Source: an uncultured Candidatus Saccharibacteria bacterium
GTDB taxonomy: Bacteria > Patescibacteriota > Saccharimonadia > Saccharimonadales > CAIOMD01
Reading direction: 5' to 3'
Assembly: GCA_963716565.1 (NCBI GenBank)
Contig: OY970318.1
Span: forward strand, 644,284-708,283
Length of the DNA: 64,000 nucleotides
Each line of letters starts with the position of its first letter. Position 1 is the first letter of the stretch. Made by a program: the position numbers and the translations under genes. Positions 2,168 through 27,888 of the stretch are shown piece by piece. Under the pieces are notes generated by a model. The model saw nothing but the letters and a program-made list of their open reading frames with translations, was not told where the DNA came from and did no database searches.

Positions 2168-2169
2168 TG

Positions 2170-3030
2170 CTAGTTAACTAAGTTACGTAAATAATCCCCA
2201 TAGCCGCTTTTTGCAAACGTCTCGGCCTGTTTTAGGAGTTGATTGTCGTCTATAAAACCTTCGCGCCAAGCGATTTCTTCTATGCAGCCGATTTTGATGC
2301 CTTGACGCTCCTCGATAACCTGAACAAATTGTGAGGCTTGCTGCATGCTAGCAAAGGTGCCAGTGTCTAGCCAGGCTGTACCGCGATCTAGCAAGCAAAC
2401 TTTTAGTTTGCCTCGTTCTAAATAGGCGTTTTGAACTTCGGTGATTTCTATTTCGCCACGAGCGCTTGGCTTTACATTTTTTGCGATTTCTACAGCTTCA
2501 TTATCAAAAAAGTATAGGCCTGGTATGGCGTAGCTACTCTTTGGCTTCACTGGTTTTTCTTCTATGCTAACAACATTCATTTTGTTGTCGAATTCCACAA
2601 CGCCATAACGTTCTGGATCGGAAACTTGATGGCCAAAGATTACGCCGCCATCGGGATTGGTATATTGTTTTAATTTGTCGCCCATCTCGGAACCGTAAAA
2701 GATATTGTCACCCAGTATCATGGCCACTTTATCTTGGCCAATAAAATCGGCTCCTACTATGTAAGCATCGGCCAATCCGCGGGGTGCATCTTGTACTTTA
2801 TATGTGAATTTGCAACCAATTTGCTCGCCGGAGCCAAGCAACTGTTCGAATCGAGGAAGGTCAAGCGGTGTGGAAATTATTAAAATGTCGCGTATGCCGG
2901 CACTCATTAAAGTGCTTAGCGGGTAATAAATCATTGGTTTGTCGTAAACAGGCAATAGCTGCTTGCTGGTTGCCATTGTTATTGGGTAGAGCCTTGTGCC
3001 TGATCCACCAGCTAGTATGATTCCCTTCAT
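2170..3030 (-). CDS. rfbA: glucose-1-phosphate thymidylyltransferase
   Basis: 286 aa. N-terminal MKGIILAGGSGTRLYPIT and full-length RmlA-like sequence; lies in an operon with rfbD/C/B. Confidence 0.92.
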   Translation of the reverse strand: MKGIILAGGSGTRLYPITMATSKQLLPVYDKPMIYYPLSTLMSAGIRDILIISTPLDLPRFEQLLGSGEQIGCKFTYKVQDAPRGLADAYIVGADFIGQDKVAMILGDNIFYGSEMGDKLKQYTNPDGGVIFGHQVSDPERYGVVEFDNKMNVVSIEEKPVKPKSSYAIPGLYFFDNEAVEIAKNVKPSARGEIEITEVQNAYLERGKLKVCLLDRGTAWLDTGTFASMQQASQFVQVIEERQGIKIGCIEEIAWREGFIDDNQLLKQAETFAKSGYGDYLRNLVN

Positions 3031-3893: not shown

Positions 3894-4470
3894 AAGGAGT
3901 TATGTCTTTTAGGAGTGGTTGTTGGCGATCTTTGTCTGAAATTATGGCTTGGCCTAACGGTATGGGCCATTTAATTGCCAGGCCTGGGTCGGCTAAATTG
4001 GCATGGGTATAGTGAGCATCTGCAGACCAATGGGCGTCTACTAGGTAAACATAGTCGACATTGTTCGACAAGGCTTGGTAGGAATTGCCGCAACCCTTTG
4101 GTACGTATAGGGCTTTTTGTGGGGTAAGCTCAAAAGTTTCGACTACTCCAAAAGTTTCGCCTTTGCGCAAGTCTACAATGGCACAGAATGCTTTGCCCCG
4201 GGTTAGGGTTATGTATTTATTCCACGGCTCGGCATGAATACCGCGAGTGGCACCTAACTGTTCGTTAGACGAAGCATTACACTGAACAATCTTAAAATCT
4301 TTGGGGAAGCCTAGCGTAACCAACTTTTCTAGCTGAAAAGATTCTTTAAACCAGCCTCGTTCATCGCCAATGACTGCTAAGTCTATTAGTAACAAGCCAG
4401 GTATCTTTGTTTTGTGAACGGCTAAGTTGCGGTTTGCGTAAAGCGAAGAATCGTAATTATTAAACTGCAT
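3883..4470 (-). CDS. rfbC: dTDP-4-dehydrorhamnose 3,5-epimerase
   Basis: RmlC-like cupin (GDERGWFKESF, HAEPW). I place the start at the internal ATG at 4470 (MQFNNYD...), 2 nt downstream of the rfbB stop. The longer ORF-track N-terminus runs antisense-free through the rfbB 3' end and looks like read-through. Confidence 0.85.
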   Translation of the reverse strand: MQFNNYDSSLYANRNLAVHKTKIPGLLLIDLAVIGDERGWFKESFQLEKLVTLGFPKDFKIVQCNASSNEQLGATRGIHAEPWNKYITLTRGKAFCAIVDLRKGETFGVVETFELTPQKALYVPKGCGNSYQALSNNVDYVYLVDAHWSADAHYTHANLADPGLAIKWPIPLGQAIISDKDRQQPLLKDITPFED

Positions 4471-4471
4471 A

Positions 4472-5473
<1,002 letters not shown>

Positions 5474-5529
5474 CTATATTTTAACTTAAAAATTGTGAAT
5501 TTACTCCCTAAAAAGTGTAATATTACTAC

Positions 5530-6587: not shown

Positions 6588-8423
6588 TTATTCTACAGTA
6601 ACCGATTTGGCTAGGTTGCGGGGCCTGTCTATGTCTAGCTTTTTTGCCAAAGCAACATAGTAGGCAAAAAGCTGTACAATAACGGCCTCTAATATTGGGG
6701 AGCATTGATCAAGTGTATTTGGAATTGTAATTATGTCGTCAGCCAGGCTTTGGAGTTTGCGTGCATTCTTGCTAGTACTGACAGCAATTATTTTGCCGCC
6801 CCTAGCTTTAATTTCTTGCATGTTAGATATGACTTTATCGCTTAATTCTTTACCATCTGCTAAGGCGAATGTAGGAAAGTCTTTATCTATCATGGCTAGT
6901 GGACCATGTTTCATCTCGCCAGCAGCATAGCCTTCGGCATGGATATAAGAAACTTCCTTTAGTTTTAGTGCTCCTTCCAAGGCAACCGGATATTCGTAGC
7001 CACGGCCGATGAATAAGAAATCACGATACTTTTTATATTTGTTAGCAATTTTTCTGATATCTTCGGCCTGCAGCAGTAGATGTTCGAGCTTATTAGGAAC
7101 GGCTACAATTTCTTTTAGGAGTTTGTGGAATAAGGGACTCTTTCCTTTGCCAAGCTTGAGCGCTATTAAAGTTAACACAGTAACTTGGGCAATAAAGGCT
7201 TTGGTGGAAGCGACGGATATTTCTGGGCCGGCGTGGCAGTATACTCCAGCATCAGTAATGCGCGAGATAGTTGAGCCTGGCGCATTAACTATACCTAAGC
7301 GTAGGATCCCGCTGCTTTCTACCTTTTTTAAAGCTGCTATAGTATCGGCCGTTTCGCCTGATTGTGAAATAGCCAGCATGGCAGTTTTGTTAGACAGCGG
7401 CTCGTTGCGATATTTGAATTCGGATGCTAGCTGAACTTCTACGGGGATTTGAGCAATTTCTTCTAACAAATATTCCCCAACTAAGCCGGCGTAATAAGAT
7501 GTACCGCAAGCTACAATTAATATCCGGTCAATTTCTTGTAGCCGGTTTTCTACCCGTTCTAGACCACCCAGCTTAACGCTGTTAGATTCTAAATTAGCTC
7601 GACCCAATATGGCCGATTGCACCGTTTTTGGGGCGTCAAAAATTTCTTTTAGCATGTAATGAGCAAAACCACCCAGGCTTGTCTTGATACTCTCGAGCTC
7701 TATTTGCTCTGGTTGGTGGTTAACGATTTTATTCTGTTTAAAGTTTTTAATTTTATATTTGTCTTTTGTAACAATTGCCAGTTCGTAATCTTCGAGGTAG
7801 ACAATCTTTTTTGCAGTATCGGCAACTGCTGAGGCATCTGAGCCAACCATCATGGCCGACTTGCTGATGCCAATTGCTAGTGGGCTGGAGAGTTTGGCAA
7901 TGTAGATATTATTGGGGTTGATCTTGGTAATCATGGCAATGGCATAGGCGCCTTCGAGTTTTTGGATGGCTGATTCAAAGGCTTTTTCGATATTGCCCGT
8001 TTTTTTGTAGAAGTAATCTATAAGCTGTGGAATCACTTCGGTATCAGTATTGGATAGAAAAGTATATCCATCTTTGGTTAATAATTCTTTAATAGCTTGG
8101 TAATTTTCGATTATGCCGTTATGCACTACAAAGATAGTGCCATCATTATTGCTGTGTGGGTGGGCGTTTATTTTTGTAGGTGCACCATGGGTTGCCCAAC
8201 GAGTGTGCCCAATAGCTAGGGGGATTGATGGTAGCCCGAGTGAGCTTATCTCTTTTTCTAGATTTTCGACTCGGCCGGCTTGTTTAACATTGTAAAAGCG
8301 ATTCTGTTTATCGCAAACTGCTATTCCGGCCGAATCATAGCCGCGGTATTCTAAATTATTTAAACCATTTATAACTGCCTTTACGCCATCGTTCTTGCCA
8401 ATATAACCTACAATTCCGCACAT
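6588..8423 (-). CDS. glmS: glutamine--fructose-6-phosphate aminotransferase (isomerizing)
   Basis: 611 aa. Starts MCGIVGYIG (Cys nucleophile after Met), has two SIS-domain regions, and ends LAKSVTVE. Confidence 0.93.
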   Translation of the reverse strand: MCGIVGYIGKNDGVKAVINGLNNLEYRGYDSAGIAVCDKQNRFYNVKQAGRVENLEKEISSLGLPSIPLAIGHTRWATHGAPTKINAHPHSNNDGTIFVVHNGIIENYQAIKELLTKDGYTFLSNTDTEVIPQLIDYFYKKTGNIEKAFESAIQKLEGAYAIAMITKINPNNIYIAKLSSPLAIGISKSAMMVGSDASAVADTAKKIVYLEDYELAIVTKDKYKIKNFKQNKIVNHQPEQIELESIKTSLGGFAHYMLKEIFDAPKTVQSAILGRANLESNSVKLGGLERVENRLQEIDRILIVACGTSYYAGLVGEYLLEEIAQIPVEVQLASEFKYRNEPLSNKTAMLAISQSGETADTIAALKKVESSGILRLGIVNAPGSTISRITDAGVYCHAGPEISVASTKAFIAQVTVLTLIALKLGKGKSPLFHKLLKEIVAVPNKLEHLLLQAEDIRKIANKYKKYRDFLFIGRGYEYPVALEGALKLKEVSYIHAEGYAAGEMKHGPLAMIDKDFPTFALADGKELSDKVISNMQEIKARGGKIIAVSTSKNARKLQSLADDIITIPNTLDQCSPILEAVIVQLFAYYVALAKKLDIDRPRNLAKSVTVE

Positions 8424-11871: not shown

Positions 11872-13299
11872 TTAATCTGTTTTTGCTGCTAAGCCTAAAA
11901 CAATGCCGGCTAGGAGCCAAACGTAGATGGTATTTATATAAGTGCCAAAAAAACCGTATTGGACCAAAAGGGCAATCATTAGTGAGGTTGCCGTAACGCA
12001 AAGCAAGGGGCTCTTTTTTAGGCCGTTTTTAAGCAGTTGCCAGATGCCGCTGACATAAATTAGCAAAAAGGCCACTAGCCCAAATATGCCTAGCTCGGCC
12101 AAGATAAGAATGTAGTAAATATAAACAGTTAAGTTGGATGGCGCAGTTGAATCAACGTTTTCTACTACATACGGGCCAAGATTGCCGGCGCCCACACCTG
12201 AGATGATAGTTGCATAATTACTGCGCCAAGCTTGCAAAGCTAAATCGGCTGCCCCAAGGCGGTCGCTAGTGGATGCTTCGATTAAGCCTGGCGATACAAA
12301 TTCTTCGACGCTAATACACGTTGGTGGAGTTGATTCGGTCGTCTCTGTTGGCACTTCTGGGGCTATCTTATCTGGCAGGCTCAATAAACCCAAAGAAACA
12401 TGTTCCAAGATGGTATTGGTGGTGTCGTAGGCAATGTTTGGAGTATTGCGGTAGCGCCAACTGGCCGAAGCAATCATCAAGCCAAAGCTAGCTAGGGCAC
12501 AGGCGATAACTAGACCTAGGCTTAAAATGGCCCTTTTGACATCTAACTTTTTTGAAATAGCTAACAAAACGGCAAAAACTATTAGGCCGGCAACTACCGC
12601 CCCGTAAGCTCCCCTTGAAAAGGTTAAAGTAATGGTTAACGAAACAAGTAGTAGCGATGCCAGGCTCAGGCGGCTTTTGTTTTTGTAAAAAACAGCCAGG
12701 CTAACAAAGAAGAAAGGTAGCAGTGCATTGGCCAAAAATAATGGCTCGGCTGCTAATAAATTAACCCGCGGAAAGCCAAAGATATCGCCCATACATCCCC
12801 TACAGGCAATTCCCAGCGTATTGTCGCTAAAAGTACCAAAAACAAATTGGCCCAAGCCTAAGGCGCCATAAATTATTCCCGCATAAAGCAATAGCTTAAT
12901 TATTAGCGGGTACGTTTTTTGAGCCAGTTCGTAACGTATATACCACCAGCCAGCCAGCACCAAAGCTAGTAAAAATAAGATTGATACCGTTAGTAGTAAG
13001 CTGCGCGCTTGGTTTATAACGCTCAATTGCCCGGTAATGGCTACCAAAGCCAGAATGACAATACTTAAAAAGGCTAGTTTATTTTGTTCGTATAGCCCCC
13101 GAATTTTTAAAAGTATACCCTTGGCGCACAAAAGTACAAAAAGTACCGCCAAAACTTGGTAAAGGCCTATCCTAAAAGACGTGAAATCGTATGCCGGCAA
13201 AGCAATAGAGGGATATTTAGATAGCGGCATGCCAATAATTAAGGCAATGAATAGCCAAAAGCGAAGGCGGGCGAAGGTAATTTTTGTCATTGATACCAT
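11872..13299 (-). CDS. O-antigen ligase/polymerase-like polytopic membrane protein
   Basis: 475 aa with at least 10 hydrophobic segments and a central extracytoplasmic loop. The context (glycan cluster) and topology fit Wzy_C/O-antigen-ligase-like proteins. Confidence 0.6.
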   Translation of the reverse strand: MVSMTKITFARLRFWLFIALIIGMPLSKYPSIALPAYDFTSFRIGLYQVLAVLFVLLCAKGILLKIRGLYEQNKLAFLSIVILALVAITGQLSVINQARSLLLTVSILFLLALVLAGWWYIRYELAQKTYPLIIKLLLYAGIIYGALGLGQFVFGTFSDNTLGIACRGCMGDIFGFPRVNLLAAEPLFLANALLPFFFVSLAVFYKNKSRLSLASLLLVSLTITLTFSRGAYGAVVAGLIVFAVLLAISKKLDVKRAILSLGLVIACALASFGLMIASASWRYRNTPNIAYDTTNTILEHVSLGLLSLPDKIAPEVPTETTESTPPTCISVEEFVSPGLIEASTSDRLGAADLALQAWRSNYATIISGVGAGNLGPYVVENVDSTAPSNLTVYIYYILILAELGIFGLVAFLLIYVSGIWQLLKNGLKKSPLLCVTATSLMIALLVQYGFFGTYINTIYVWLLAGIVLGLAAKTD

Positions 13300-13331
13300 T
13301 TTACCTTAATCGAGTAACAATTTTTTCTCTT

Positions 13332-13530
13332 GCTACTTTTGCTGTCAAAAGTAGCCAAAACCACTGGGCTGCGTTTTCTCTTGATCAACCTACTGGTCAA
13401 GCCAAACAACAGCCTCGATAACTCGGCAAAATTTTATCAACTTAAGACCATTTTGCCTCAAGCATCTCTTCGGCCTAGATGTTGTTTGTTTGACGTAAAG
13501 CCATCAGGATAAAGCCGATGCCCAGACCCG
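13332..13530 (+). ncRNA. candidate structured RNA, copy 1 (unassigned family)
   Basis: Intergenic. Hairpin 13332-13355; closing helix CTGGGC 13364-69 / GCCCAG 13520-25; helix 13403-11 / 13480-88; apical helix 13425-32 / 13450-57; 5' hairpin 13380-87 / 13394-13401. Every helix covaries with copy 2. Confidence 0.6.
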
Positions 13531-13662
13531 ACGAGCTGCATTGATAACAGACAGTCTATACCATAAGAGTAAGTTTTTGTTTCTTTAATGCTCTTTAGCC
13601 AACAATGGCTCCGGCCCAGACCTATTTTCTAACATCCAACATCTAGCGTCTAACATCCATTT

Positions 13663-14124
13663 ATGCTAATGTTAAAAACAAGAACATTTTCAAAACAAAA
13701 TATGAGCAGAAAGACTAAAAAACTTCTTATACAGTTTGCCGAATACATGATTGCCGGCGGTGCTTATTTTTGGAGCGGCTATTTTATTATTGTTTTTCTA
13801 ACCCCAGTGATTGGACTGTGGTGGGCAAATATCTTGGGCAACGGCGTAGGCATAACTGTTAATTTTATATTAGAGCGCTACTGGGTGTTTAAAAGCAGCA
13901 AACAGCGCCACGTTACCGAAGTATCTGCTCGCTACATTATTTTTACGGCCTGTAACTTTATAATTAATTATCTTATTTTAAGATGGTTGCAGTCTGTTGG
14001 CATTGATGTGGCGGTTGGGCAGTTTATTGCTTCGGGCTTCTTTACTATTTGGAACTACTTTTGGTACCGTTTTTGGGTATTTAAAGGCAAGCCGCACTTG
14101 CACAGGATAAGACACCATGCCTGA
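13663..14124 (+). CDS. GtrA family membrane protein
   Basis: 153 aa with 4 TM segments and a GtrA-like pattern (YxxAGGxxF..., ERYWVFK, FxWxRFWVFK). Confidence 0.8.
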   Translation: MLMLKTRTFSKQNMSRKTKKLLIQFAEYMIAGGAYFWSGYFIIVFLTPVIGLWWANILGNGVGITVNFILERYWVFKSSKQRHVTEVSARYIIFTACNFIINYLILRWLQSVGIDVAVGQFIASGFFTIWNYFWYRFWVFKGKPHLHRIRHHA

Positions 14125-14569
14125 TGACAATAAAATAAGACCAACCAAAAAACAGAGGGCCTTGCTAGAATTTATTGCTCAATTTATTGCCGAACATGGC
14201 TATAGCCCTTGCTACCGCGAGATTATGACTGGGCTAGGCTATACGTCTGTAGCTACGGTTTCGTTGCACGTCACTAGTTTGATAAAAAGGGGTCATTTGC
14301 AAAAGCGCGATCGTTCGGCCCGCTCGCTAGAGGTTGTTTCGGAAGAGATTATTAAGATGACTCCAATGCAGCCAATTAAGGCGGCCGACGAAAAATGGCT
14401 AGTAGACATTGTAGAATCCAGATTTACCCATCACGAGAATTGCCAAGATCTGACCCAAAGAGAAATTGATAATTTATTTGTATTAGTGGGGGCACTGCGG
14501 GTGTTGGGTCTAGAAGAAGCGGCCCGCAGTTTTATACCACGGCTGGGCAGTATTAAGAATAAGAAATAA
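14117..14569 (+). CDS. LexA N-terminal (winged-helix) DNA-binding domain protein lacking the S24 peptidase domain
   Basis: 150 aa. Residues ~10-75 (KKQRALLEFIAQFIAEHGYSPCYREIMTGLGYTSVATVSLHVTSLIKRGHLQK) match the LexA DNA-binding domain pattern. The C-terminal half shows no Ser/Lys S24 signature. 8-nt overlap (ATGCCTGA) with GtrA. Confidence 0.65.
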   Translation: MPDDNKIRPTKKQRALLEFIAQFIAEHGYSPCYREIMTGLGYTSVATVSLHVTSLIKRGHLQKRDRSARSLEVVSEEIIKMTPMQPIKAADEKWLVDIVESRFTHHENCQDLTQREIDNLFVLVGALRVLGLEEAARSFIPRLGSIKNKK

Positions 14570-14574
14570 CTTTT

Positions 14575-14790
14575 GCAACCTTTTGTCCGCCAAAAGGTTG
14601 CGCCAAAACCACTGGGCTGCTTTTTGGCCTTGGAATAACCTGTAGCCAAGCGCCACAACAGCCTGCGGGACTCCCTAACGGTCGGCCAAAACTTCTATCA
14701 ATCTTTCAAAGAAAAAGTTTTGGCAAGTCCTCGGCTTTAATGTTGTGGCTTTGGCCAGTTTATCCAGGCCCAAAAAGATGCCCAGACCCG
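14575..14790 (+). ncRNA. candidate structured RNA, copy 2 (unassigned family)
   Basis: Starts 6 nt after the LexA-like stop. Hairpin 14575-14601; CTGGGC 14612-17 / GCCCAG 14780-85; helix 14620-27 / 14770-77; helix 14652-60 / 14741-49; apical helix 14685-93 / 14716-24. Confidence 0.6.
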
Positions 14791-14860
14791 ATAATCGCAT
14801 CGCCGGCAAGGTAACGCCCTGTTAGTATCGTCAGTACCGACGGATAATGGTGTCGCATGG

Positions 14861-14888
14861 TTGTTATTCAAAGATATTATGTTATAAT
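14861..14888 (+). promoter_or_regulatory. sigma70-like promoter candidate
   Basis: TTGTTA (14861-66), 16-nt spacer, TATAAT (14883-88), located upstream of the 14955 ORF. Confidence 0.4.
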
Positions 14889-14954
14889 AAACAAAGAGAA
14901 TCCAAAATAGCCTTGCCTAATGTGAGGCTTTGTACCTTAGGAGGCGGAAAAAGC

Positions 14955-15302
14955 ATGGACGAGTGGCAACGAGTTGCGCTGCAAGACTTCCTGCGGGCGA
15001 AGGAGCTTCTGGTCGGAGGCCAGATGACTAGGTGGTTTCATTTTCACCCGTCTTTGCCGCCAATAGTGGCGATGATCGTAGACATCGAAGATGTTCGTCA
15101 TGATGGCACTGACTACAGGGATATAATCGTTAGAACCGAGCACTTCGTTTCGACGGTTCCCGATGGCCCGGTCTTTGCCCTGAAAGACTTCGAGTTCGAG
15201 GTCAATCCGCCAGGCGCTTGCTGCATCTGCCATGCTTGCGCGAGTCTCTGGGTGGTAGCGGTTCCCCTAAAGGGTCTCGTACATCTTCAGTACCGAGCCT
15301 AG
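14955..15302 (+). CDS. hypothetical protein (115 aa, Cys cluster CCICHAC)
   Basis: AGGAGG at 14939-44 lies 10 nt upstream of the ATG at 14955. The ORF is visibly more GC-rich than its neighbours, and I recognise no family. The long antisense ORF is judged spurious. Confidence 0.4.
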   Translation: MDEWQRVALQDFLRAKELLVGGQMTRWFHFHPSLPPIVAMIVDIEDVRHDGTDYRDIIVRTEHFVSTVPDGPVFALKDFEFEVNPPGACCICHACASLWVVAVPLKGLVHLQYRA

Positions 15303-15318
15303 CAGGCAGTATCGTACA

Positions 15319-15355
15319 GGTCGCAAAGGACCCCACAAGAGGGTCCGATGCGACC
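15319..15355. terminator. strong stem-loop between convergent genes
   Basis: GGTCGCA-aa-GGACCC-cacaaga-GGGTCC-ga-TGCGACC (13 bp), sitting between the 15302 stop (+) and the 15394 stop (-). Confidence 0.55.
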
Positions 15356-15393
15356 CTCTTAATATTATGCGAATATATTTAGGCAGCGACCGT

Positions 15394-16849: not shown

Positions 16850-16924
16850 TCCGGAGTAGCTCAATGGTGGAGCAAGAAGCTGTTAACTTCGAGGTTGCCG
16901 GTTCGAGCCCGGCCTCCGGAGCCA
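16850..16924 (+). tRNA. tRNA-Asn (anticodon GTT), CCA encoded
   Basis: Manual cloverleaf: acceptor TCCGGAG/CTCCGGA, D arm GCTC..GAGC, anticodon loop CTGTTAA, T arm GCCGG-TTCGAGC-CCGGC, discriminator G, CCA. Confidence 0.9.
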
Positions 16925-16925
16925 A
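16910..16925 (+). repeat. attL-like direct repeat (tRNA-Asn 3' end)
   Basis: CGGCCTCCGGAGCCAA is identical to 29574-29589. Confidence 0.7.
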
Positions 16926-16933
16926 AGCAAGCA

Positions 16934-16977
16934 GCCAAATGACGTGACCGTGTTCCTAGACCGTTCACTCATTTGGC
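16934..16977. repeat. 44-bp imperfect palindrome at the island's left edge
   Basis: GCCAAATGA...TCATTTGGC outer arms (9 bp perfect), with inner arms partly symmetric around TTCCTAG. Confidence 0.5.
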
Positions 16978-17028
16978 CTCTTGTACGGAAACGATTTGCT
17001 GAATAAGATTTTAAGTACCTTTAACATC

Positions 17029-17054
17029 GGAACCGCCAGAAATGGCGGTTTTTG
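17029..17054 (+). terminator. intrinsic terminator
   Basis: AACCGCC-agaaat-GGCGGTT followed by TTTT. Confidence 0.6.
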
Positions 17055-17134
17055 ATTCATTAACTCCTGCGCTTGGTTCTAGAACCGACCGTAAGCTATA
17101 TGAGAATCAAGCAGTACAAAGGCTGACTGTGTTC

Positions 17135-18148
17135 CTAGACCAATATCGTTTTTTGAAAGTATAGCGGTGTCTCTTCTTCTATTGCCGGCAGCGCTTGTCG
17201 AGCCAGTAATCGTTCGCTTGCTTTTTCTATTATGGCTCGCTGTTTAAGACCTTGTTGGTTGGCTATAATTATGCGCTCGGCAGAATAGTCTGCGGATACC
17301 ATCAACTTTCTACCATTAAGGATTATGCGGCAACTTGTATTTTGAAGTACTGCTTCAATCGTCTTCGTGGCTTCATTGGCGGAGAACACATCACGCTGTA
17401 ATTGGGTGTTAATTACAACCGTATTGATGCTGGGGTTGTTCTTAAGGTATTCGACTATTTTTGCTCGCTGATGATCGTTTACGGCATAGATGTGTGGTAT
17501 AACTGGCACGCCCAACTTGCTAAGTTCATGAACATAGGAGAGCGACTTATTCAAGTTGATTAACTGGCCCATGGGGCACTCATGTAAGAATAGCGAAAAA
17601 TTCATACCAGTGACGGCATAGAAGCCGCCTTTAGCTATCTCTTGAAAAAGTGATATTTCATGTTTATCAAACCATAGTTTTTCGATGACGACATCTATAT
17701 AGCTACTAAAGAGTACAATCTTTTTGCCTCGAAACGCTGGTCTATCTAATGCAGATAGAGATATGTGGACACCATCACGCATATAGTAGTGCCCCCAACG
17801 CAATTTGGGCTTGGTACTTAGTATATCCTTAAGGTTTATGCCAACTATTTTAGGGAATAGTTCTGGGTCCCAATCAAAGCATCCTGAAGGTACCACAACT
17901 AATTCATCTGGCATCACTGGTGAGCCGGTCATTATGGGCTTATTGGCAAAGTCCAATCCGCCAGCGTCTGCTATATACTCCTGCAAGTTAGTGCTATGAC
18001 AATCTACGATGCCCCGATTATCGCCAGGGCATCGCTCACGCACCAGTGCCTTTTCGTCCTTTGCTATGAGATTGGGTGCACATGAACTCGCGTCACAATA
18101 AGCACTGGCAAACAGAGAGACCTGGTTGCTATCGCTTGATCTCCGCAT
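17135..18148 (-). CDS. hypothetical protein (Cys-rich N-terminus + alpha/beta domain)
   Basis: Start chosen at ATG 18148 (MRRSSDS...), overlapping the upstream ORF by 20 nt. I cannot assign a family confidently; it vaguely recalls DUF4417-type proteins of mobile elements, unverified. Confidence 0.5.
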   Translation of the reverse strand: MRRSSDSNQVSLFASAYCDASSCAPNLIAKDEKALVRERCPGDNRGIVDCHSTNLQEYIADAGGLDFANKPIMTGSPVMPDELVVVPSGCFDWDPELFPKIVGINLKDILSTKPKLRWGHYYMRDGVHISLSALDRPAFRGKKIVLFSSYIDVVIEKLWFDKHEISLFQEIAKGGFYAVTGMNFSLFLHECPMGQLINLNKSLSYVHELSKLGVPVIPHIYAVNDHQRAKIVEYLKNNPSINTVVINTQLQRDVFSANEATKTIEAVLQNTSCRIILNGRKLMVSADYSAERIIIANQQGLKQRAIIEKASERLLARQALPAIEEETPLYFQKTILV

Positions 18149-18602
18149 AGCGTACGCCTTTTTTATCAACCACTTCAGCATAGTTGTATGCATAGCCCAT
18201 ACCGGCACATTGCTTCACTATTTTGTGTTGTAGCGTAGTCAATTGACCAACTATTGTGCCGGCAACAGTCTTTAGCAGCTGTTTGTCTAAGATCAACTTG
18301 GTACCAATCGACACCGTTTGGTTGCTTAGTTTAGTATCGAAGGCTAGCGGGCAGACATTATTGATGTCTACCGGTTGCGCGTCGGATCCTATACCGCCGC
18401 CCGTGCCTACAACACTACTATTTGATTTTGGCCTATTAATGACAGGCCGGTCATTTGATTTTCGTGCTACTGATGAGCCCATGTGGAAAACCTTCATCCT
18501 ATTCTGCGGTTGGTATTGACCGCTTATATTAGAGCTTGATAGGATAGAAGGTATACGAGGGTAAGATTCTTGTATACCTAAGATGCCAGTTACCGCTGGC
18601 AT
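18129..18602 (-). CDS. hypothetical protein (Gly/Ser-rich N-terminal half)
   Basis: The ORF is open to 18650. ATG 18602 (MPAVTG...) has AAGGAAAG just upstream, and other starts are possible. No recognisable family. Confidence 0.4.
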   Translation of the reverse strand: MPAVTGILGIQESYPRIPSILSSSNISGQYQPQNRMKVFHMGSSVARKSNDRPVINRPKSNSSVVGTGGGIGSDAQPVDINNVCPLAFDTKLSNQTVSIGTKLILDKQLLKTVAGTIVGQLTTLQHKIVKQCAGMGYAYNYAEVVDKKGVRYAEIKR

Positions 18603-18787
18603 CTTTCCTTTTCCAGCTTGGTTTAAATACTGGATAGACATCCAGCTCACAGAGTCTCAAATTTTATTTTGATTCTCTGACGTTATTTTAGCAGATATGC
18701 ATAAAATAAGCAAGCCAGAGGTATCGTTATGTGCGTATAAATACTCTACAAAGGCACTGATAGAGATTTATATCTTCAAGAAAAGTA

Positions 18788-18816
18788 TTGATTTATAATA
18801 CATAATATGGTATATA
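18788..18816 (+). promoter_or_regulatory. promoter candidate giving a near-leaderless mRNA
   Basis: TTGATT (18788-93), 17-nt spacer, TATATA (18811-16). The ATG at 18827 has no SD. Confidence 0.4.
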
Positions 18817-18826
18817 TGTATATATT

Positions 18827-19093
18827 ATGGATATAAATGAACAAAATAGTGGCTATAGGAAAGATATGTATACCCCCGAAGCACGTAAGGCGCGTTTTAA
18901 GAGGATTGCGGAAAAACGAACAAACAGAATCCTCAATGATATTCGTTTGATTGGTAACACCGGCAACAAGACTTTATATAGCTATGATCAGGCAGATGTA
19001 GATAAAATTTTTACAATTATTGATACAAAATTAACAGAAACCCGGTCCAGGTTTAAGACATCAAAAAAAGAAAAGCCGTTTACGCTTGACTAA
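18827..19093 (+). CDS. hypothetical small basic protein
   Basis: 88-aa, Lys/Arg-rich helical ORF. No family recognised. Confidence 0.45.
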   Translation: MDINEQNSGYRKDMYTPEARKARFKRIAEKRTNRILNDIRLIGNTGNKTLYSYDQADVDKIFTIIDTKLTETRSRFKTSKKEKPFTLD

Positions 19094-19099
19094 TGCGCC

Positions 19100-20374
19100 C
19101 TAAGGCTTCATGAACAGTAGGGATCCATTCTTGATGCTTAACCGCGTAATAAGACCACAAGCGAAAGCTGTTTTTTCACATTCGGTTCCTTTTGATAAGA
19201 CATATCTTGAGTATTCAATTAGGGGAGTATCTAGTTCTACCTCGATTTTGTAGTGGTTAAGAAGTGTTCTCGTAACACCAAGATGTTTCTCTATTTTCGC
19301 GCGCAATTTGTCAGTGATTTCAATTTTGTCATAATTCTTTTCGATGAATTCTTGTATTAGTGTACATAGGTTATTCTCGTTTATATATTTCTCTTGGCAA
19401 TTCGGGTCTACTCGTTTTGTACAGTTGTAATAGACATGACGATTAATTTCACCGTTCTTTAACTTCTTGAATTTCTCCTGTGCGGTTATATCTGCCCCGC
19501 AGCGTCCGCATTTCAGTAAACCACGGAATGCAAACTGTTTTGATCCCCAAATGCCTTTGTAGGTGCCTCTAGTTTGCTGAACAAGCTCAAATAGCTCTTT
19601 AGATATTAGTGGTTTATGCGAACCCTTGAACCACTTACCTGAACCTTCCGGATATTCAAACTCTCCGTAGTAAAAGGTTGTAGTCAGAATAATAAATATT
19701 TGGCTAAGAGTAATTGGTCTCCCTGAACGATTTGTGAAGCTTTGATTGTCAAACCAATCTTTTAATCTTCTGCCGCTCCAGCCATCTTGCCCAGCTTTTC
19801 TAAACATTTCGGCTATTATTTCTGCTCGCTCCGGGTCGGGGATTATGTCTTTTATGCCTCCAAAATGGCGGTTCATATAACCCAGTGGAGCCGCTCCGGG
19901 TCGCCAACCCATTTCGCACTTTGCCTTAATCCCTCTTTTGACATTCACGCTTTTGTTATCGTTTTCTAGTTTTGCTTGCGAGCAAAGGATCATCAGTAAG
20001 AATTTTTCATTTGGGTTGTTGGTAAACGTTTGTGAATATGTACGAATGTGTAGTAGCTTACCTTGATCCATTAAGTCGACTATCGATCCTAAGTCGCCAG
20101 CATTCCTGCTAAGACGATCGGGTGCCCATGTGAGCACAGCATTGTATTCTTTATTACGTAATCCTTCGAGTAACTGGTTGTAAGTGGGTCGTTGCCCAGA
20201 TTCTTTGGCAGAATGGCTTTCCTGGAGTTCGCAAACAATACTCAACTGTTCGTTCTCTGCTAAAGCTCGCATTTCTTTTAACTGTGAGTCGATGCTCATA
20301 GTTTGTCGCTCATCCGATTCGCTTGACTTACGGGCATATAGACAATATTTAAGTTCTGGCGCTTTTGTTTCCAT
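19100..20374 (-). CDS. large serine recombinase (resolvase/invertase N-terminal domain + recombinase domain + zinc ribbon)
   Basis: 424 aa. N-terminal YARKSSESDERQ..SIDSQ catalytic-Ser region, a central recombinase domain, and CGRCGADITAQEK...YYNC Cys pairs. Confidence 0.85.
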   Translation of the reverse strand: METKAPELKYCLYARKSSESDERQTMSIDSQLKEMRALAENEQLSIVCELQESHSAKESGQRPTYNQLLEGLRNKEYNAVLTWAPDRLSRNAGDLGSIVDLMDQGKLLHIRTYSQTFTNNPNEKFLLMILCSQAKLENDNKSVNVKRGIKAKCEMGWRPGAAPLGYMNRHFGGIKDIIPDPERAEIIAEMFRKAGQDGWSGRRLKDWFDNQSFTNRSGRPITLSQIFIILTTTFYYGEFEYPEGSGKWFKGSHKPLISKELFELVQQTRGTYKGIWGSKQFAFRGLLKCGRCGADITAQEKFKKLKNGEINRHVYYNCTKRVDPNCQEKYINENNLCTLIQEFIEKNYDKIEITDKLRAKIEKHLGVTRTLLNHYKIEVELDTPLIEYSRYVLSKGTECEKTAFACGLITRLSIKNGSLLFMKP

Positions 20375-20423
20375 AGTAGGACAAAGAATACCGCGATAGT
20401 TACTGAAGTCTAGCCCAAATTGA

Positions 20424-21071
20424 CTACTTAATAGGGCAAAAGAGTCCTTTGTACTTCTGTTGGTCTATGTCGTGATCCATTAGTATCTCTAATAAATTAT
20501 CTAGGGAATTTTTAACAGAGTCGAGGTAATACGCATCACTTCTAGCATCAAAACCATTTTCAGTCCACGCAAGAACGGCCATGCCGAGTATACTGCAAGT
20601 TTTTATTTCTACACCCAGCACTTCTTTTATGTCTTTAACGACATTCCAATAATCAGTTCTGTTATTGGGAAAATCCCAACAAATAACAAGAGGTATTAGA
20701 TTATCGCGTTTTATTCCACGTCTACTTACTAATACCGCTATGTCATCTAAGAGATTTCGTGGTGCGTCTAAGACTGCGGTTGACGGTATCTCAACCTCAC
20801 AGACTATTTTATGGTCGTTACTTGGGTCATCAATAAGTACATCGTATCTTTCATTTACATCACCCTTGCGAGGGAAATGCGCCTCTAGACCTAATTTGTC
20901 ACAAAGAGCTTTAATTAAGTATCTAAAACCATTTGGGTCTAGTTTTAGCCGTTGATAACTTGACACCAACAGATCCATCTTTTGGCTTAAATCAAAGTCA
21001 TTGTTTACAAGCTCCGAAATATAGTCTTTCTCTTCGGGCTTCGACTGTTGTTTAGTTTTATAGATTTGCAA
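20424..21071 (-). CDS. restriction endonuclease small subunit candidate (PD-(D/E)XK-like)
   Basis: 215 aa. The segment ERYDVLIDDPSNDHKIVCEVEIPS aligns by eye with ERFDVIIPDKKFSIPVEVKSP in the C-terminus of the adjacent 588-aa protein, so the two nuclease domains are paralogous. Confidence 0.5.
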   Translation of the reverse strand: MQIYKTKQQSKPEEKDYISELVNNDFDLSQKMDLLVSSYQRLKLDPNGFRYLIKALCDKLGLEAHFPRKGDVNERYDVLIDDPSNDHKIVCEVEIPSTAVLDAPRNLLDDIAVLVSRRGIKRDNLIPLVICWDFPNNRTDYWNVVKDIKEVLGVEIKTCSILGMAVLAWTENGFDARSDAYYLDSVKNSLDNLLEILMDHDIDQQKYKGLFCPIK

Positions 21072-22824
21072 AGCTAATTACTCCTCTCACGTCCGAAAAA
21101 TCAGAAATTAGATAGTTCTTGTCGTTCAATAGACAGTAATACGCTGCCGAGAGAAGAATATCCATATCTGCTATAGCTATATTGACGCCATACAAAGTAT
21201 GAATATCCTCTATCAGTTTATAAACATCAGAGCGTTCGTTTGGTATGTTATATCCGACTGCAAAGGTGCTAATTTCAGGAATAGTAGGGTAGTATTTACC
21301 ATATCTTGAAAGCAAAACAACCTTGTTTTCTAAAGCTTGCCGTACGGCTTTCACTGAGAGCATTACCTCTTCTGTTGGCGATTTAACTTCTACTGGGATT
21401 GAGAATTTTTTATCCGGGATAATGACATCAAATCGCTCGTTATTTACGCCTGCCTGTGGCGCTCTAGCGTCCAAGCCAAAAATAATTTGAAATAACTCAG
21501 CCACAAATGGGTAAAACTCCATCTGCTTCATAGTGATGGCCTTGCCGCTCATAACCCTAATTGCGTCGTGTGTATCGTTCTTGCAGTCATTCAATGTTTC
21601 TAGTAATTCATGCTTGGCACTGTTACGTTTCGCGGTAGTGGTATGAACTACCCCGATTGACTTGTCCGATTTAAAAGTATAGCCAATGGCGGTAGACCGA
21701 CTCACCGCGAAGTCTACAGTCTTATCTCCGATATCAGTTTCGTAATCGGGCAGTACATCTTTTATGCTTTGTTTATCAAAGTATTGGTAGGGAGAAAATA
21801 GCACCTTTTTTGCTCCAAAGGTTTCTGCAATTTCATTGATCTCAACCTCCATAGCGTCGAGCTCCTCATCAACAAGAAAGTCTGCTCTCCTTAACATTTG
21901 GAGAAAGCCTACTTTAGAAACCGAATTGATTATTGTTTGATCTTTTTCTAGTAGTACGCTTCCATTAATGGAGGCAACCTCGTCTAGCCATGCAATCAAT
22001 GCAGTACCTTTGGGGGTAATTTTTAGGAAATCTTTTTTCGAGCCATAGACGTTGCTGATATCCTTTTTTAGCCATCCGCAAAAAACCAAGGCAGAAATAA
22101 CAAACCGAGTGTAGTTTCTCATTGTATTTATTTCGATTCCGAGATCGTGTGATAATTTTTTCAGCTCTGCTTTGAGGTTGGAGTATTTCTTTGTGATTCG
22201 AAGATTTTTAATCGTATCGGACGTATTCTCAATTTCATCATTGTTATATCCATTCGATAAATTCATTGGTCCGATTAAAATTTCATCTCGACAAATTTCA
22301 CCGTCCAGTAGCGACACAGTCCTCATGATACTAACAAACGGCTTGTTAATATCGCGGAACTTAACGTCCAATATCTTGTTAGGATAATTTATGCCAAGTA
22401 AACATTGTTCGAACAATTTACCAGACGACTCCCCAGCAGTGGCAACGTGGACACCTAGGAATGTGAAATTAAATCTTAATGCAGCATCCTCGCTGGAAAC
22501 AATCCAGCCCAAGAAACGATAAACCTCAGCGTACATTTTGGCTTGGTTATATAAAGGGTTCCTAGACGTATCTTTTCGCTCATATGATTTTTCAAGTGCT
22601 TGTGCTCCAATATAGCCGGATGAGCTTGCAACATTCTCAGCTACCATAATGTCTGCCATATTGTTCAGATCGAAAGATTGAGCATTAGCTAAGTTGGCAT
22701 AGAGTAGCTTGAAGATGTTAATCAGCTGGCTAATATCTGACCCTGGGTTGGGAAATCTGATCATATCCCTGTCATTATAGTTCAGGCAAGAGTCGGCTAC
22801 AAACTCACAAAAATTATTTTGCAA
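21058..22824 (-). CDS. restriction endonuclease large subunit candidate (N-terminal recognition region + C-terminal PD-(D/E)XK nuclease)
   Basis: 588 aa. C-terminal D...EVK motif (FDVIIPD...PVEVKSP). In an operon directly after two DNA MTases, and overlaps the small-subunit gene by 14 nt. Confidence 0.55.
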   Translation of the reverse strand: MQNNFCEFVADSCLNYNDRDMIRFPNPGSDISQLINIFKLLYANLANAQSFDLNNMADIMVAENVASSSGYIGAQALEKSYERKDTSRNPLYNQAKMYAEVYRFLGWIVSSEDAALRFNFTFLGVHVATAGESSGKLFEQCLLGINYPNKILDVKFRDINKPFVSIMRTVSLLDGEICRDEILIGPMNLSNGYNNDEIENTSDTIKNLRITKKYSNLKAELKKLSHDLGIEINTMRNYTRFVISALVFCGWLKKDISNVYGSKKDFLKITPKGTALIAWLDEVASINGSVLLEKDQTIINSVSKVGFLQMLRRADFLVDEELDAMEVEINEIAETFGAKKVLFSPYQYFDKQSIKDVLPDYETDIGDKTVDFAVSRSTAIGYTFKSDKSIGVVHTTTAKRNSAKHELLETLNDCKNDTHDAIRVMSGKAITMKQMEFYPFVAELFQIIFGLDARAPQAGVNNERFDVIIPDKKFSIPVEVKSPTEEVMLSVKAVRQALENKVVLLSRYGKYYPTIPEISTFAVGYNIPNERSDVYKLIEDIHTLYGVNIAIADMDILLSAAYYCLLNDKNYLISDFSDVRGVISFANL

Positions 22825-22829
22825 TAGGA

Positions 22830-23636
22830 TTAAGAAGATTGGTCTAAATCAAGAGCTGTAGGCTCGTAGGTGGATTTTGAGATTCTGTCCTTAGCCATTT
22901 GAACATATTCGGGGTTTAGCTCTATGCCGACATAGTTCCTATGATTCTTTTTGGCACTCACGCACTCACTTCCGGATCCAGCGAATGGTACTAGCACCAA
23001 GTCACCTTCATTTGAAAAATGCTTAACAATCTTATCGCATATAGTTAGGGGTTTTTGGGTTGGGTGTGGGTACTTTTCGCCAGCAAACCTTTTACCCGCA
23101 AGCGTTGGTATATCCCATATGTCTCCTGCGTGTTTCCCTAGAGGGTTAGGAGTCCAAACCTTACCATTCTTTATTATTTTATTTTTCAGTCTTTCGGTGC
23201 TCAAGTATGGCTCTCTGATTTGGTGGTATGTGTAACCATTTCCTTTATGGAACCATAATAGTGGTTCGTACGTAGCTGCCGGACGATTTTTATAGGGAGA
23301 AAAGCCGTTCTTATAGTGCCAAATAAACATTCTTCCATAATCGAACCCAAGGTCATAAAGCATTTTCTGTATGTAGCCTATGTTGTGGTGTATCCCGTAG
23401 ACAAATATCGAACCACCATCTTTTAATACTCTATGTGACTCACTTAGCCACTTTTCAGACCATTTCAGCCACACATCTCGATCATTTAGAGTCCACTTTA
23501 TGCCCACTTGGAATTCTTTATCCTTTTCCATGCCATAAGGAGGATCGGCAATAATCAGGTCAATGCTACTATCGTCTATTTTCTTCAATAGTTTCACCAC
23601 ATCGCCCTGATGTACTTGGTTACTTTTTAGCATCAC
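22830..23636 (-). CDS. DNA methyltransferase (N6-A/N4-C type, beta-class motif order)
   Basis: 268 aa. DPPYG (motif IV) near the N-terminus and VPFAGSGSE (motif I) near the C-terminus. Confidence 0.85.
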   Translation of the reverse strand: MMLKSNQVHQGDVVKLLKKIDDSSIDLIIADPPYGMEKDKEFQVGIKWTLNDRDVWLKWSEKWLSESHRVLKDGGSIFVYGIHHNIGYIQKMLYDLGFDYGRMFIWHYKNGFSPYKNRPAATYEPLLWFHKGNGYTYHQIREPYLSTERLKNKIIKNGKVWTPNPLGKHAGDIWDIPTLAGKRFAGEKYPHPTQKPLTICDKIVKHFSNEGDLVLVPFAGSGSECVSAKKNHRNYVGIELNPEYVQMAKDRISKSTYEPTALDLDQSS

Positions 23637-24483
23637 TATCCTTGGTACTTTGTAGAATTATTATGTACTGATGGTGCATGTTTGGCACATACGAATAGGG
23701 GTAACCATAGGGAAATATTTTTTTATGTCTTTGGTATAGCACGGTCATCCCCTTAAGCTTAAATTCGCCAGAATCTTCAATCTTTTTTGCGAGGTCGGCA
23801 TGAAATAGATAAAACTGATCTTTATGTCTGAAATCGCTCACAACGATACACATATATTTTTTTGGTTTCAGTATTCTTCCGCAATCAATGAAAAATTTAG
23901 AGAGTATGTCAATAAAATCTTCGTAATTTTCTATATTGGCAAGATCCTCTTTTAGCTCACTATAGTTCAGGTCAAGATTATTGGCCTGTCTCTCCTTAGT
24001 TTTGTGGTCAGGCTTTTTGTTTAAGATAGTCCAGTAAGGTGGGCTTGTTACAAGAAGATCGACGCTGTTATCTTTCAGCTTTTTAATCTCTTTTATTGAA
24101 TCACCGTGAATCACTCTTTGCTCGGATGAATCATCTACTTCTTTGTCTAATCTTTCAAGGCTCAAATCGTAGAACTTTTCAACAAGCTCAATTCCTACTC
24201 CTTTTCGCCCCTCAATTGCAGCAGCCTTGAGCGTAGAAGCGACCCCCAGAAATGGATCGAATACCGTATCGCCTTTTTTTGTGAAGAACCTTATAAGCCG
24301 AGCAACATCTTGAAATGAGTATGGTGCTGGGTGCATTTTCTCTATTTTTGCATCGTCATGTCCAGCACCGAGACCTTTTTGTACAAATACAGAAATTGTC
24401 TCAGGTAGCCACTCTTTTGCAGTCAAATCATTGAGCTTATTGACGAGTTTTCGTTTAGGTTTTTCGTTATTTTCTTCTAGCAT
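23620..24483 (-). CDS. DNA methyltransferase (N6-A/N4-C type, motif I before motif IV)
   Basis: 287 aa. VFDPFLGVAST (motif I-like) at ~aa 75 and TSPPYW (motif IV) at ~aa 147. Confidence 0.8.
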   Translation of the reverse strand: MLEENNEKPKRKLVNKLNDLTAKEWLPETISVFVQKGLGAGHDDAKIEKMHPAPYSFQDVARLIRFFTKKGDTVFDPFLGVASTLKAAAIEGRKGVGIELVEKFYDLSLERLDKEVDDSSEQRVIHGDSIKEIKKLKDNSVDLLVTSPPYWTILNKKPDHKTKERQANNLDLNYSELKEDLANIENYEDFIDILSKFFIDCGRILKPKKYMCIVVSDFRHKDQFYLFHADLAKKIEDSGEFKLKGMTVLYQRHKKIFPYGYPYSYVPNMHHQYIIILQSTKDSDAKK

Positions 24484-24528
24484 ACTTAATAGTCTAACAA
24501 TTAATTACAGTTTTGTCTTCCCCTGACT

Positions 24529-24542
24529 AGAACTTATGTTCT
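24529..24542. promoter_or_regulatory. palindromic operator candidate AGAAC-TTAT-GTTCT
   Basis: GAAC-N4-GTTC core about 45 nt upstream of the first MTase start (24483). Confidence 0.35.
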
Positions 24543-24616
24543 GGAATATACAACCACCACATAGAACGTACTGCAATGGTATCAAAAGTCCAGGCTAATA
24601 TCAGCTACTCTTACAA

Positions 24617-25105
24617 CTAGTCCCAAAAAATATCCGTGGAGCCGTAGTCGCCATTTTCCCTGTAACATGTTGCATATAAGTACTTAGGCTTTATTTGAAA
24701 GACATTAAAGCGGGTACCGTCCTTTTCGGTAAAATCAGCGAAATTTAAGGCTGCATGCTGACCAGAGATAACGCTATAAGCCGCACCAGACATATATTTG
24801 TAATCTTGATTTAGGGTAAATTTACAGCCCGAGAAATCCTTTGCCTCGTTATTTATAAACGTTATTCCGTCTGCATTGTATGAAGCACTAACATTTAAAG
24901 TATCTGGGTCGCTAGATACTTTTGTTGGTGTGGGCGTGGAATTTGCTGTTGTTTTGGTCGTTGTCGTATTGTTTTGGCCAGCCTCTTTAGATTTAGAGTC
25001 AATATCGTTAAACGTGCTTACTACCATAGATAGCAGTATTAACATGCCCAAAATAGCCCACCATTTGAAATACCATTTTTTACCCGTTGCTTTATTCTTT
25101 TGCAT
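24617..25105 (-). CDS. membrane-anchored/secreted hypothetical protein
   Basis: 162 aa. N-terminal TM helix, Thr-rich linker (TTTTKTTANSTPTPTK), C-terminal domain with 2 Cys. Confidence 0.55.
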   Translation of the reverse strand: MQKNKATGKKWYFKWWAILGMLILLSMVVSTFNDIDSKSKEAGQNNTTTTKTTANSTPTPTKVSSDPDTLNVSASYNADGITFINNEAKDFSGCKFTLNQDYKYMSGAAYSVISGQHAALNFADFTEKDGTRFNVFQIKPKYLYATCYRENGDYGSTDIFWD

Positions 25106-25290
25106 TTACTTCCTCCGTCTAATTGATGACGCGATCTTGCGAGGAAGTCCATACAAAAAGGACAGCCACGCTAGATTGTCTAGACCAGAGCAAGCAGTGA
25201 TGCCTGCTTTTTCGCGTAGCTGCCCATTTATTGGCACCACTACGCAAGAACAATCTTGCATTGCTGTTTGCTCTGATCTAGACATTTTTA

Positions 25291-27858: not shown

Positions 27859-27888
27859 ATATAAGGTTCGTTATTAGATAATGAGTCT

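Follow-up and report, generated by a model that had tools for sequence, protein, structure and literature searches.

A 64,000-nucleotide stretch of DNA from an uncultured Candidatus Saccharibacteria bacterium (contig OY970318.1; hereafter, the window) carries two copies, W1 and W2, of a non-coding unit whose single strand forms a 5′ hairpin and then a long rod. These copies belong to a previously undescribed family, so far known only from a few environmental Saccharibacteria (Saccharimonadia), which comprises 12 full copies, a truncated one and a pair of solo 3′-end remnants in at least seven Saccharibacteria genomes or contigs. At a probability of roughly one half, we propose that W1 and W2 represent a new family of structured, non-autonomous interspersed repeats, spread or homogenised through a folded strand and an invariant base that some factor encoded elsewhere would recognise.

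W1 (13328-13535; covariance model (CM) R1, 174 bits, E 6e-48) and W2 (14572-14795; 150 bits, E 3e-41) both lie on the + strand, at the positions and in the orientation given by a first-pass annotation that had been made from the letters of this DNA. The short sequence islands described there are present in both copies. The 18-mer CCAAAACCACTGGGCTGC matches exactly in W1 (13355) and W2 (14603) and nowhere else in the window, and still has only these two matches when three mismatches are allowed (shuffles give 0.04). The 15-mer GATGCCCAGACCCGA has exactly two occurrences as well, at 13517 and 14777, and ACAACAGCCT, TATCAA and ATGTTGT are further islands common to the pair. In W1, a 5′ hairpin (13332-13355, GCTACTTTTG/CAAAAGTAGC) is followed by the linker CAAAACCA (13356-13363), a rod (13364-13525) closed by CTGGGC at 13364-13369 and GCCCAG at 13520-13525, and an ACCC tail (13526-13529). 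The corresponding parts of W2 are a 5′ hairpin at 14575-14601, a closing helix formed by CTGGGC at 14612-14617 and GCCCAG at 14780-14785, and an ACCC tail at 14786-14789; its apical hairpin is the longest of the family. Minimum free energies (MFE) are -60.7 kcal/mol for W1 (z -4.3) and -93.7 kcal/mol for W2 (z -8.0), and 0 of 200 shuffles was as stable in either case. No conserved open reading frame (ORF) lies within the repeat: W1 contains one of 60 aa, and W2 contains none.

The annotation had set these segments apart from RNase P RNA, tmRNA and signal recognition particle RNA, and a comparison with Rfam bears this out. Across 13200-14950, on both strands, none of the 4227 models of Rfam 15 gave a gathering-level match, and nothing relevant appeared even at E≤10. 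The best sub-threshold scores, for RefA5 (22 bits; gathering 91) and HTH-XRE (17 bits; gathering 50), both fall only on the 5′ hairpin.

What had been described as two paralogues is indeed a homologous pair, but not just a pair, as both copies are members of a larger interspersed repeat family. The unit is 185-225 nt long and non-coding, all copies are intergenic, and the 12 full copies score 100-202 bits with the CM, which was first built from seven copies. We refer to the fetched loci by L numbers. Three copies are found in L001, whose LexA-like protein is 80% identical to that of the window (2078-2286, 2373-2559 and 4508-4692, here L001a, b and c); the first two stand in tandem, 87 nt apart. 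L031, a groundwater Saccharibacteria metagenome-assembled genome (MAG), carries two, L031a (1878-2066, from a genome pattern scan) and L031b (5277-5478, from a CM search). Another Saccharibacteria MAG, L011, has one on the - strand (4276-4482, genome pattern scan), as does L048 (1846-2051, metagenome scan), and the seven-copy CM located one each in L051, L052 and L175. L173 holds a 3′-truncated copy (7098-7300). The remnants are GGCTCCGGCCCAGACC at 13607-13622 (+) of the window, about 85 nt past W1, which resembles the last ~16 nt of the element in a pattern scan and on reading the flank, and its equivalent after L001b (L001, ~2628-2646). The search for homologues with a CM, which the annotation had proposed, thus recovered copies, and their substitutions keep the rod pairing.

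Beyond these loci the searches returned little. A two-island pattern had 42 matching loci in the genome scan, 40 of them chance matches in unrelated non-Saccharibacteria, the real ones being L011 and L031. The metagenome pattern scan gave only L048 and L049, and the latter has the same CM scores as L031 and is apparently the same sequence. In IMG/VR, an exact 18-mer scan had 0 matches and a 14-mer scan gave 120 loci, of which eight have an upstream CTGGGC and none is a CM match. Searching phage and plasmid collections with W1 by blastn ('distant' mode) produced no match, and full-text literature on Saccharibacteria or Patescibacteria repeats and structured RNAs yielded no description of a repeat or non-coding RNA family.

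All copies share one architecture: a CAAAAC linker joins a 5′ hairpin to a long imperfect rod, which is capped by a hypervariable apical hairpin and followed by an ACCC tail. A pyrimidine-rich lead-in stands before the 5′ hairpin. That hairpin has 9-12 bp, with the stem ACUUUNG/CNAAAGU, and the linker reads CAAAAC-NN. The base of the rod is invariant, CUGGGC-UG-CG opposite CG-AU-GCCCAG, and features a conserved 2x2 internal loop (UG/AU; U.U/G.A), a CG/CG step and a bulged C. Above it lie about 35 further pairs, including CUUGA/UCAGG and AAACAACA/UGUUGUUU. At the apical junction, conserved ACUC and CUCAAACA flank a hairpin that is hypervariable in both sequence and length; 10 of 11 copies possess one, and these are unrelated in sequence. 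In the distant copies L031a, L031b, L048 and L011, an extra upstream hairpin precedes CAAAAC or a shorter CAA-type tract.

This fold is kept by compensatory change, as the annotation had claimed from two copies. In a structure-blind alignment of seven copies (MAFFT and RNAalifold), there are 55 consensus pairs, of which 22 show compensatory changes. In the CM alignment of 11 copies, 91.4% of cells pair, compared with 37-47% when partners are slid by 1-3 columns, and 33 of the 55 pairs carry double changes; 0 of 500 shuffles reaches the observed values. Because the 11-copy alignment was fitted to the model, the independent seven-copy result is the fairer measure. Together, these data show selection for the fold of one strand. 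Of the five helices that had been drawn, the 5′ hairpin, the closing helix with its extension, the long-range helix caaacaaca/tgttgtttg and the apical helix are reproduced over 11-12 homologues. The remaining one, a local hairpin pairing cttgatca/tggtcaag in W1 and ccttgg/ccaag in W2, is not: it pairs in 78% of cells, no better than shuffles, whereas rod pairing reaches 93% (0/500 shuffles).

Wobble pairs in the family alignment favor the + strand as the folded one, since G-U cells are more numerous there (34, against 19 A-C cells) and recur at fixed columns (51/240, 59/233, 70/224, 80/215 and 99/193), whereas A-C cells are scattered or lie in the weakest helix. The apical hairpins are mostly Watson-Crick, with seven G-U in 110 pairs. 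Selection acts on a single-strand fold, probably that of the + strand, and both RNA and single-stranded DNA (ssDNA) are compatible with the data. The + sense that the annotation had assigned to an RNA is moderately supported by the fixed-column G-U excess, but summed MFE is slightly better for the - strand (-883 kcal/mol, versus -850 kcal/mol for the + strand), and G-T wobble, which is tolerated in ssDNA hairpins too, fits ssDNA equally well. We found no conserved promoter upstream of the copies and no conserved terminator downstream. By eye, neither sigma-70 -35/-10 pairs inside the rod (as in an Frpo-like single-strand promoter), nor pairing of the outer 5′ and 3′ flanks (as in retron a1/a2), nor hammerhead-type cores were convincing. 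Orientation relative to local GC skew is uninformative, being concordant in the lexA-locus group and L031 and discordant in L011 and L048.

Comparison of related strains reveals how readily the element comes and goes. The gene order wzy(-) gtrA(+) lexA-like(+) sua5(-), within which W1 and W2 occupy the wzy|gtrA and lexA-like|sua5 junctions, is kept in relatives. In L002-L005, both intergenic gaps measure 13-107 nt or the genes overlap, making an element impossible at either site. The gtrA-lexA DNA of L051 is 92% identical to the window, yet only ~32 nt separate wzy from gtrA there, versus ~350 nt in the window; the block absent from L051 comprises W1, the 85-nt spacer, the solo 3′-end remnant and heptad repeats. 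At the W2 site, L051 carries a copy with a W2-like 3′ flank and apical loop, together with a 5′ hairpin identical to that of W1 and W1-like arms, so that it is 88% identical to W1 and 81% to W2. The contig L176 carries the same downstream ORF homologue (orf115, described below). In L052, a copy lies between VIT1 and sua5, two genes that are 3 nt apart in L173 and L174. Indel polymorphism is thus seen twice, once when the window is compared with L051 and once when L052 is compared with L173. Decay is evident from the truncated copy of L173 and from the solo CCAGACC-type 3′ ends after W1 and L001b. These comparisons show gain, loss and overwriting of the elements among near-identical strains, as well as tandem arrangement and decay. 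Furthermore, L001a, b and c are 85-89% identical to one another and 79-84% identical to same-site copies in other genomes. Copies resemble those of their own genome more than those at the same site elsewhere, which shows concerted evolution.

At this locus the L051 contig stops (1521) where its copy has its 3′ end, and L176 begins within the next ORF. As one contig stops at the copy and the other begins just beyond it, this suggests that the repeat breaks metagenome assemblies here.

For seven of the 12 copies, the stop codon of a gene in the same direction lies 5-48 nt before the start; these genes are lexA-like in three cases and otherwise VIT1, rpsT, a 213-aa ORF and a cytidylyltransferase-like gene. 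The divergent wzy|gtrA region holds four of the 12, and L031b is antisense to both of its neighbours. Within a locus, orientation is uniform (window, 2/2; L001, 3/3; L031, 2/2). No adjacent gene family is consistent, contexts ranging from wzy|gtrA and the 3′ side of lexA-like, VIT1 and rpsT genes to the inside of an rml operon and the vicinity of type IV secretion system and PIN genes.

Under the reading we prefer, a non-autonomous repeat would propagate or homogenise, its recognised form being the invariant base together with the folded single strand, presented either as ssDNA at replication or as a transcript, and the recognising factor would be encoded elsewhere in the genome. Given the copies just after co-directional stops and the four in the divergent promoter region, the rod, when co-transcribed, would form a highly stable duplex at the end of an mRNA. 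Processing by an enzyme such as RNase III might follow, or the structure might shield the transcript, as described for BOX, ERIC/REP and Correia elements. If the family is a repeat of this kind, RNA-level side effects on neighbouring transcripts are likely.

A number of observations weigh against this reading. Scanning 596 Gb of genomes and a metagenome collection for exact patterns gave only four further loci, so that a proliferating element is not demonstrated. Within the window, a full CM scan with filters off found W1 and W2 as sole matches, a low copy number, and copies elsewhere are likewise clustered, 0.1-3.4 kb apart, around one locus rather than scattered. The high dispersed copy number of BOX/ERIC-type repeats thus finds no counterpart in two clustered copies per 64 kb. 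A Pfam scan of the window covered 59 ORFs, nearly all of those ≥120 aa; neither there nor in the gene tables of the fetched loci is there a transposase, reverse transcriptase or tyrosine recombinase. The only recombinases seen belong to the large serine type; one is encoded 4.3 kb away in the window, and others occur in L004 and L175, 3-4 kb from the lexA-like locus. Target-site duplications do not exceed chance, the longest word shared by a copy's own flanks averaging 4.9 nt versus 4.7 nt for flanks of mismatched copies. Finally, the G-U pairs at fixed columns and the unpaired CAAAAC, ACUC, UCAAACA and ACCC, which are kept across distant species, fit a functional RNA.

Other mobility signatures were sought as well. 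No Y1_Tnp/RAYT match was found in the window or the fetched loci, and, where flanking genes were listed or scanned, no RVT domain near the copies; a retron non-coding RNA (msr-msd) was rejected, with no adjacent reverse-transcriptase gene among the scanned flanks. As regards a miniature element mobilised by a transposase (MITE), the base of the rod (CTGGGCTGCG... / ...CGATGCCCAG) constitutes an inverted repeat, though not a terminal one, because the conserved 5′ hairpin and linker are found beyond it.

A serious, though less probable, alternative is that these copies form a genuine multi-copy family of structured non-coding RNA with a cellular function, as a protein-binding or sponge RNA or a processing or stability module, either with its own promoter or released from the 3′ untranslated region of the upstream gene, their turnover being incidental. 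Strong covariation over ~55 pairs is what such an RNA would display, and the single-stranded motifs, 2x2 loop and bulge are invariant between the window and the non-syntenic L031, L011 and L048. The G-U pairs at fixed columns of the + strand and the seven of 12 copies placed 5-48 nt past a co-directional stop point the same way, and element identity between genomes (80-89%) is at least that of flanking coding DNA (75-86%). Yet the element is dispensable, missing at one site in a 92%-identical strain and at both in most relatives, and it exists in tandem, truncated and remnant copies. The lack of a conserved promoter or terminator among the copies, the L031b and L173 copies that are antisense to both neighbours, and an MFE that does not favor the + strand also speak against it. 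We are more doubtful of a combination of the two ideas, a new functional class of structured RNA specific to Saccharibacteria or the candidate phyla radiation (CPR) that is carried on a mobile or recombining module. The invariant base (CAAAAC-NN, 6-bp helix, U.U/G.A loop, bulged C and ACCC) would then be a recognition site for a protein or ribozyme; one possibility is a minihelix mimic cut by RNase P or RNase III, freeing a stable trans-acting rod RNA of ~170 nt. The helix with its 3′ ACCC tail may resemble the end of E. coli 4.5S RNA.

Recombination sites akin to integron attC, at which a site-specific recombinase would insert and excise accessory genes (PIN, YafQ toxin-antitoxin, VIT1 and orf115) at this hot spot, are unlikely. 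The parallels are in layout and placement: the folded strand combines a conserved base helix and variable terminal structure with an internal loop and an extrahelical base, and it often lies directly behind ORFs, in one orientation per locus, at junctions where cassette-like accessory genes vary between strains. Duplicated CCAGACC(C) cores also flank inserts of 80-90 nt after W1 and L001b. However, the R″/R′ consensus RYYYAAC/GTTRRRY is absent, with CTGGGC/GCCCAG as the closing helix instead, the unit is too long (185-225 nt; attC sites span 55-141 nt), and no integron integrase or tyrosine recombinase was found in the window or fetched loci. The presumed cargo does not track the element either: YafQ and VIT1 are present in L173, whose only copy is decayed, and in L174, which lacks a copy; PIN is present in L050, whose 1.9 kb contain no copy; and W1 follows no ORF. 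A cis-regulatory leader or riboswitch-like element for the downstream gene (gtrA for W1, orf115 for W2) is very improbable. W1, L001a, L001b and the L175 copy do stand ahead of gtrA or of genes that precede it, and several loci are polysaccharide-related; but downstream genes are unrelated, and convergent in L001c, L052 and L011, gtrA occurs in relatives without any such leader, and the apical half is hypervariable, with no conserved pocket. These contexts, and the separate promoter-like site between W2 and orf115, agree with the annotation in its view that the second copy is not a leader. Its other suggestion, a 6S-like layout, does not hold up, and we give least credence to a pair of paralogous 6S-like RNAs that bind RNA polymerase. 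The size (~200 nt) and rod-like shape recall 6S RNA, but RF00013 has no match at E≤10, there is no central bubble, and the rod is almost continuously paired with small internal loops, its only large loop being the apical junction. The 5′ hairpin outside the rod, up to three copies within 2.6 kb, tandem and truncated copies, and absence at the level of strains are further departures. A 6S gene is normally conserved and single-copy, whereas here there are 2-3 copies per locus.

Among known systems, small interspersed repeats offer the closest parallels to a non-autonomous repeat. The pneumococcal BOX, RUP and SPRITE repeats are structured, clade-restricted and co-transcribed, and have been judged parasitic (PMC3049150). 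Like them, the Saccharibacteria element is small, non-coding and modular, with conserved ends, a variable middle and extensive predicted structure; it is intergenic, confined to a narrow clade and strain-variable in its insertion sites, and has no transposase of its own. Multiple intergenic copies, a conserved fold, insertion polymorphism and the absence of coding capacity are the hallmarks it shares with BOX/ERIC-type repeats. It has no sequence similarity to BOX, is asymmetric (5′ hairpin, linker and rod), and is present in very few copies at one locus, versus >100 dispersed BOX copies; BOX is often co-transcribed with neighbouring genes, as the element described here may be. REPINs form hairpins in ssDNA or mRNA, are mobilised in trans and occur as clusters and decaying singlets (PMC3116915). 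Hairpin formation, maintained structure and a mixture of singlets, tandem clusters and decaying remnants are common to REPIN/REP sequences and our family. REPINs are mobilised by a single-copy enzyme and consist of REP doublets of ~100 nt with a GTAG-type motif and a linked RAYT gene, whereas the present element is twice as long, has an extra 5′ hairpin and a far lower copy number, and is accompanied by no Y1/RAYT gene in the window or fetched loci. Correia elements give rise to long RNA hairpins that are bound or cut by RNase III (PMC2649163). Correia and ERIC sequences are intergenic imperfect palindromes that differ in presence between strains, as here, and their hairpins, when co-transcribed, can alter expression of neighbouring genes. 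Unlike Correia, with its terminal inverted repeats, TA target duplication and IHF sites, our element showed no target duplication and no outward promoter consensus in the rod. It differs from all these analogues in its asymmetric succession of 5′ hairpin, linker, rod and ACCC tail, its very low copy number, and its clustering at one accessory-gene hot spot beside surface-polysaccharide genes.

In the window, W1 lies between divergent genes, wzy-like (-) and gtrA (+). The wzy-like gene (11872-13299) encodes a Wzy_C/O-antigen-ligase-like membrane protein (Pfam PF04932, E 3.6e-5, below gathering score); its start codon is 29 nt from the 5′ end of W1, and its position is kept in relatives. Degenerate heptad repeats (TCTAACA TCCAACA TCTAGCG TCTAACA TCCA..., + strand, 13628-13659) stand between W1 and gtrA (Pfam GtrA, PF04138), which runs on the + strand from 13663 or 13703 to 14124. 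The lexA-like gene (14117-14569, +) overlaps gtrA by 8 nt and encodes a 150-aa protein with a Pfam LexA_DNA_bind domain only and no S24 peptidase domain. It has 3050 homologues, those with a named source coming from Saccharibacteria/Saccharimonadales except for one mislabelled bin, and the pair of gtrA and lexA-like genes is kept across related Saccharimonadia loci with or without the repeat. Given the lone DNA-binding domain, the conserved pairing and the >3000 homologues, the LexA-like protein is probably not an SOS repressor. Pfam thus upholds the identification of the two genes between the copies as GtrA and LexA-like, and the second copy does begin right behind the latter, with the W2 hairpin starting 5-6 nt past the lexA-like stop codon (14569).

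Downstream of W2, a promoter-like site that had also been reported (TTGTTA-16-TATAAT, 14861-14888, +) precedes orf115, an orphan 115-aa ORF (14955-15302, +) with this promoter-like site and a ribosome-binding site of its own, no Pfam domain and a terminator-like hairpin after it (~15340-15362). Only three homologues were found among 5.8 billion clustered proteins, and the GC content of a 1-kb window around it is 48.5%, versus ~42% overall. This promoter-orf115-terminator segment is an accessory unit and not part of the repeat. The same orf115 arrangement occurs in the strain represented by L051 and L176, and Pfam identifies a Sua5/YrdC gene to the right of orf115 in the window.

The wzy|gtrA and lexA-like|sua5 junctions differ in their accessory genes between related strains (L001, L050, L052 and L173-L175); these genes include PIN and YafQ toxin-antitoxin pairs, a VIT1-like gene, one for a small GIY-YIG protein and a type I restriction-modification island. 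Heptad repeats (TRGAYGW / TCYAACR, 4-6 units) adjoin most copies at the lexA locus in either orientation, and are absent along with W1 from L051. Besides the block next to W1, they are found at 60859-60895 of the window, 2285-2320, 2650-2685 and 4740-4775 of L001, 7035-7075 of L173 and 5445-5470 of L175; one block is inside a tilS-like gene. Immediately after two of the three copies in L001 comes a small conserved module, the GAATTCCAGGTTAAGAACCTGGAAA hairpin (2560-2590 and 4693-4720); after L001b it stands between duplicated CCAGACCCAGTAA cores.

Further along the window, a region resembling an integrated island (16850-29250) adjoins a tRNA gene (16850-16921). It contains a serine recombinase gene (19100-20374), genes for three N6_N4 DNA methylases, one of them a ParB_N fusion, many ORFs without a Pfam match and a protein with a weak, below-cutoff match to HTH_Tnp_1_2, the helix-turn-helix of insertion sequence transposases. 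A cobalamin riboswitch (RF00174, 37154-37263, +; 36.7 bits, above gathering score) lies upstream of genes for DUF4430 and DUF6580 proteins (37350-38312).

The family is new, being absent from Rfam and from the literature found, but the kind of element it represents is known; what sets it apart is an unusual host phylum and an unusually well supported fold. Saccharibacteria genomes are very small and gene-dense. Dozens of compensatory changes have kept this fold of ~200 nt intact, which implies that some trans-acting partner, such as a nuclease, recombinase or binding protein, reads the folded strand. The presence of the element at a hot spot of cell-surface polysaccharide and accessory genes changes from strain to strain. 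This genomic behaviour points away from a new housekeeping RNA. Action at the level of DNA would mean that CPR bacteria possess a mobilisation or recombination system so far unrecognised, and action at the level of RNA that the element represents a new structured RNA class.

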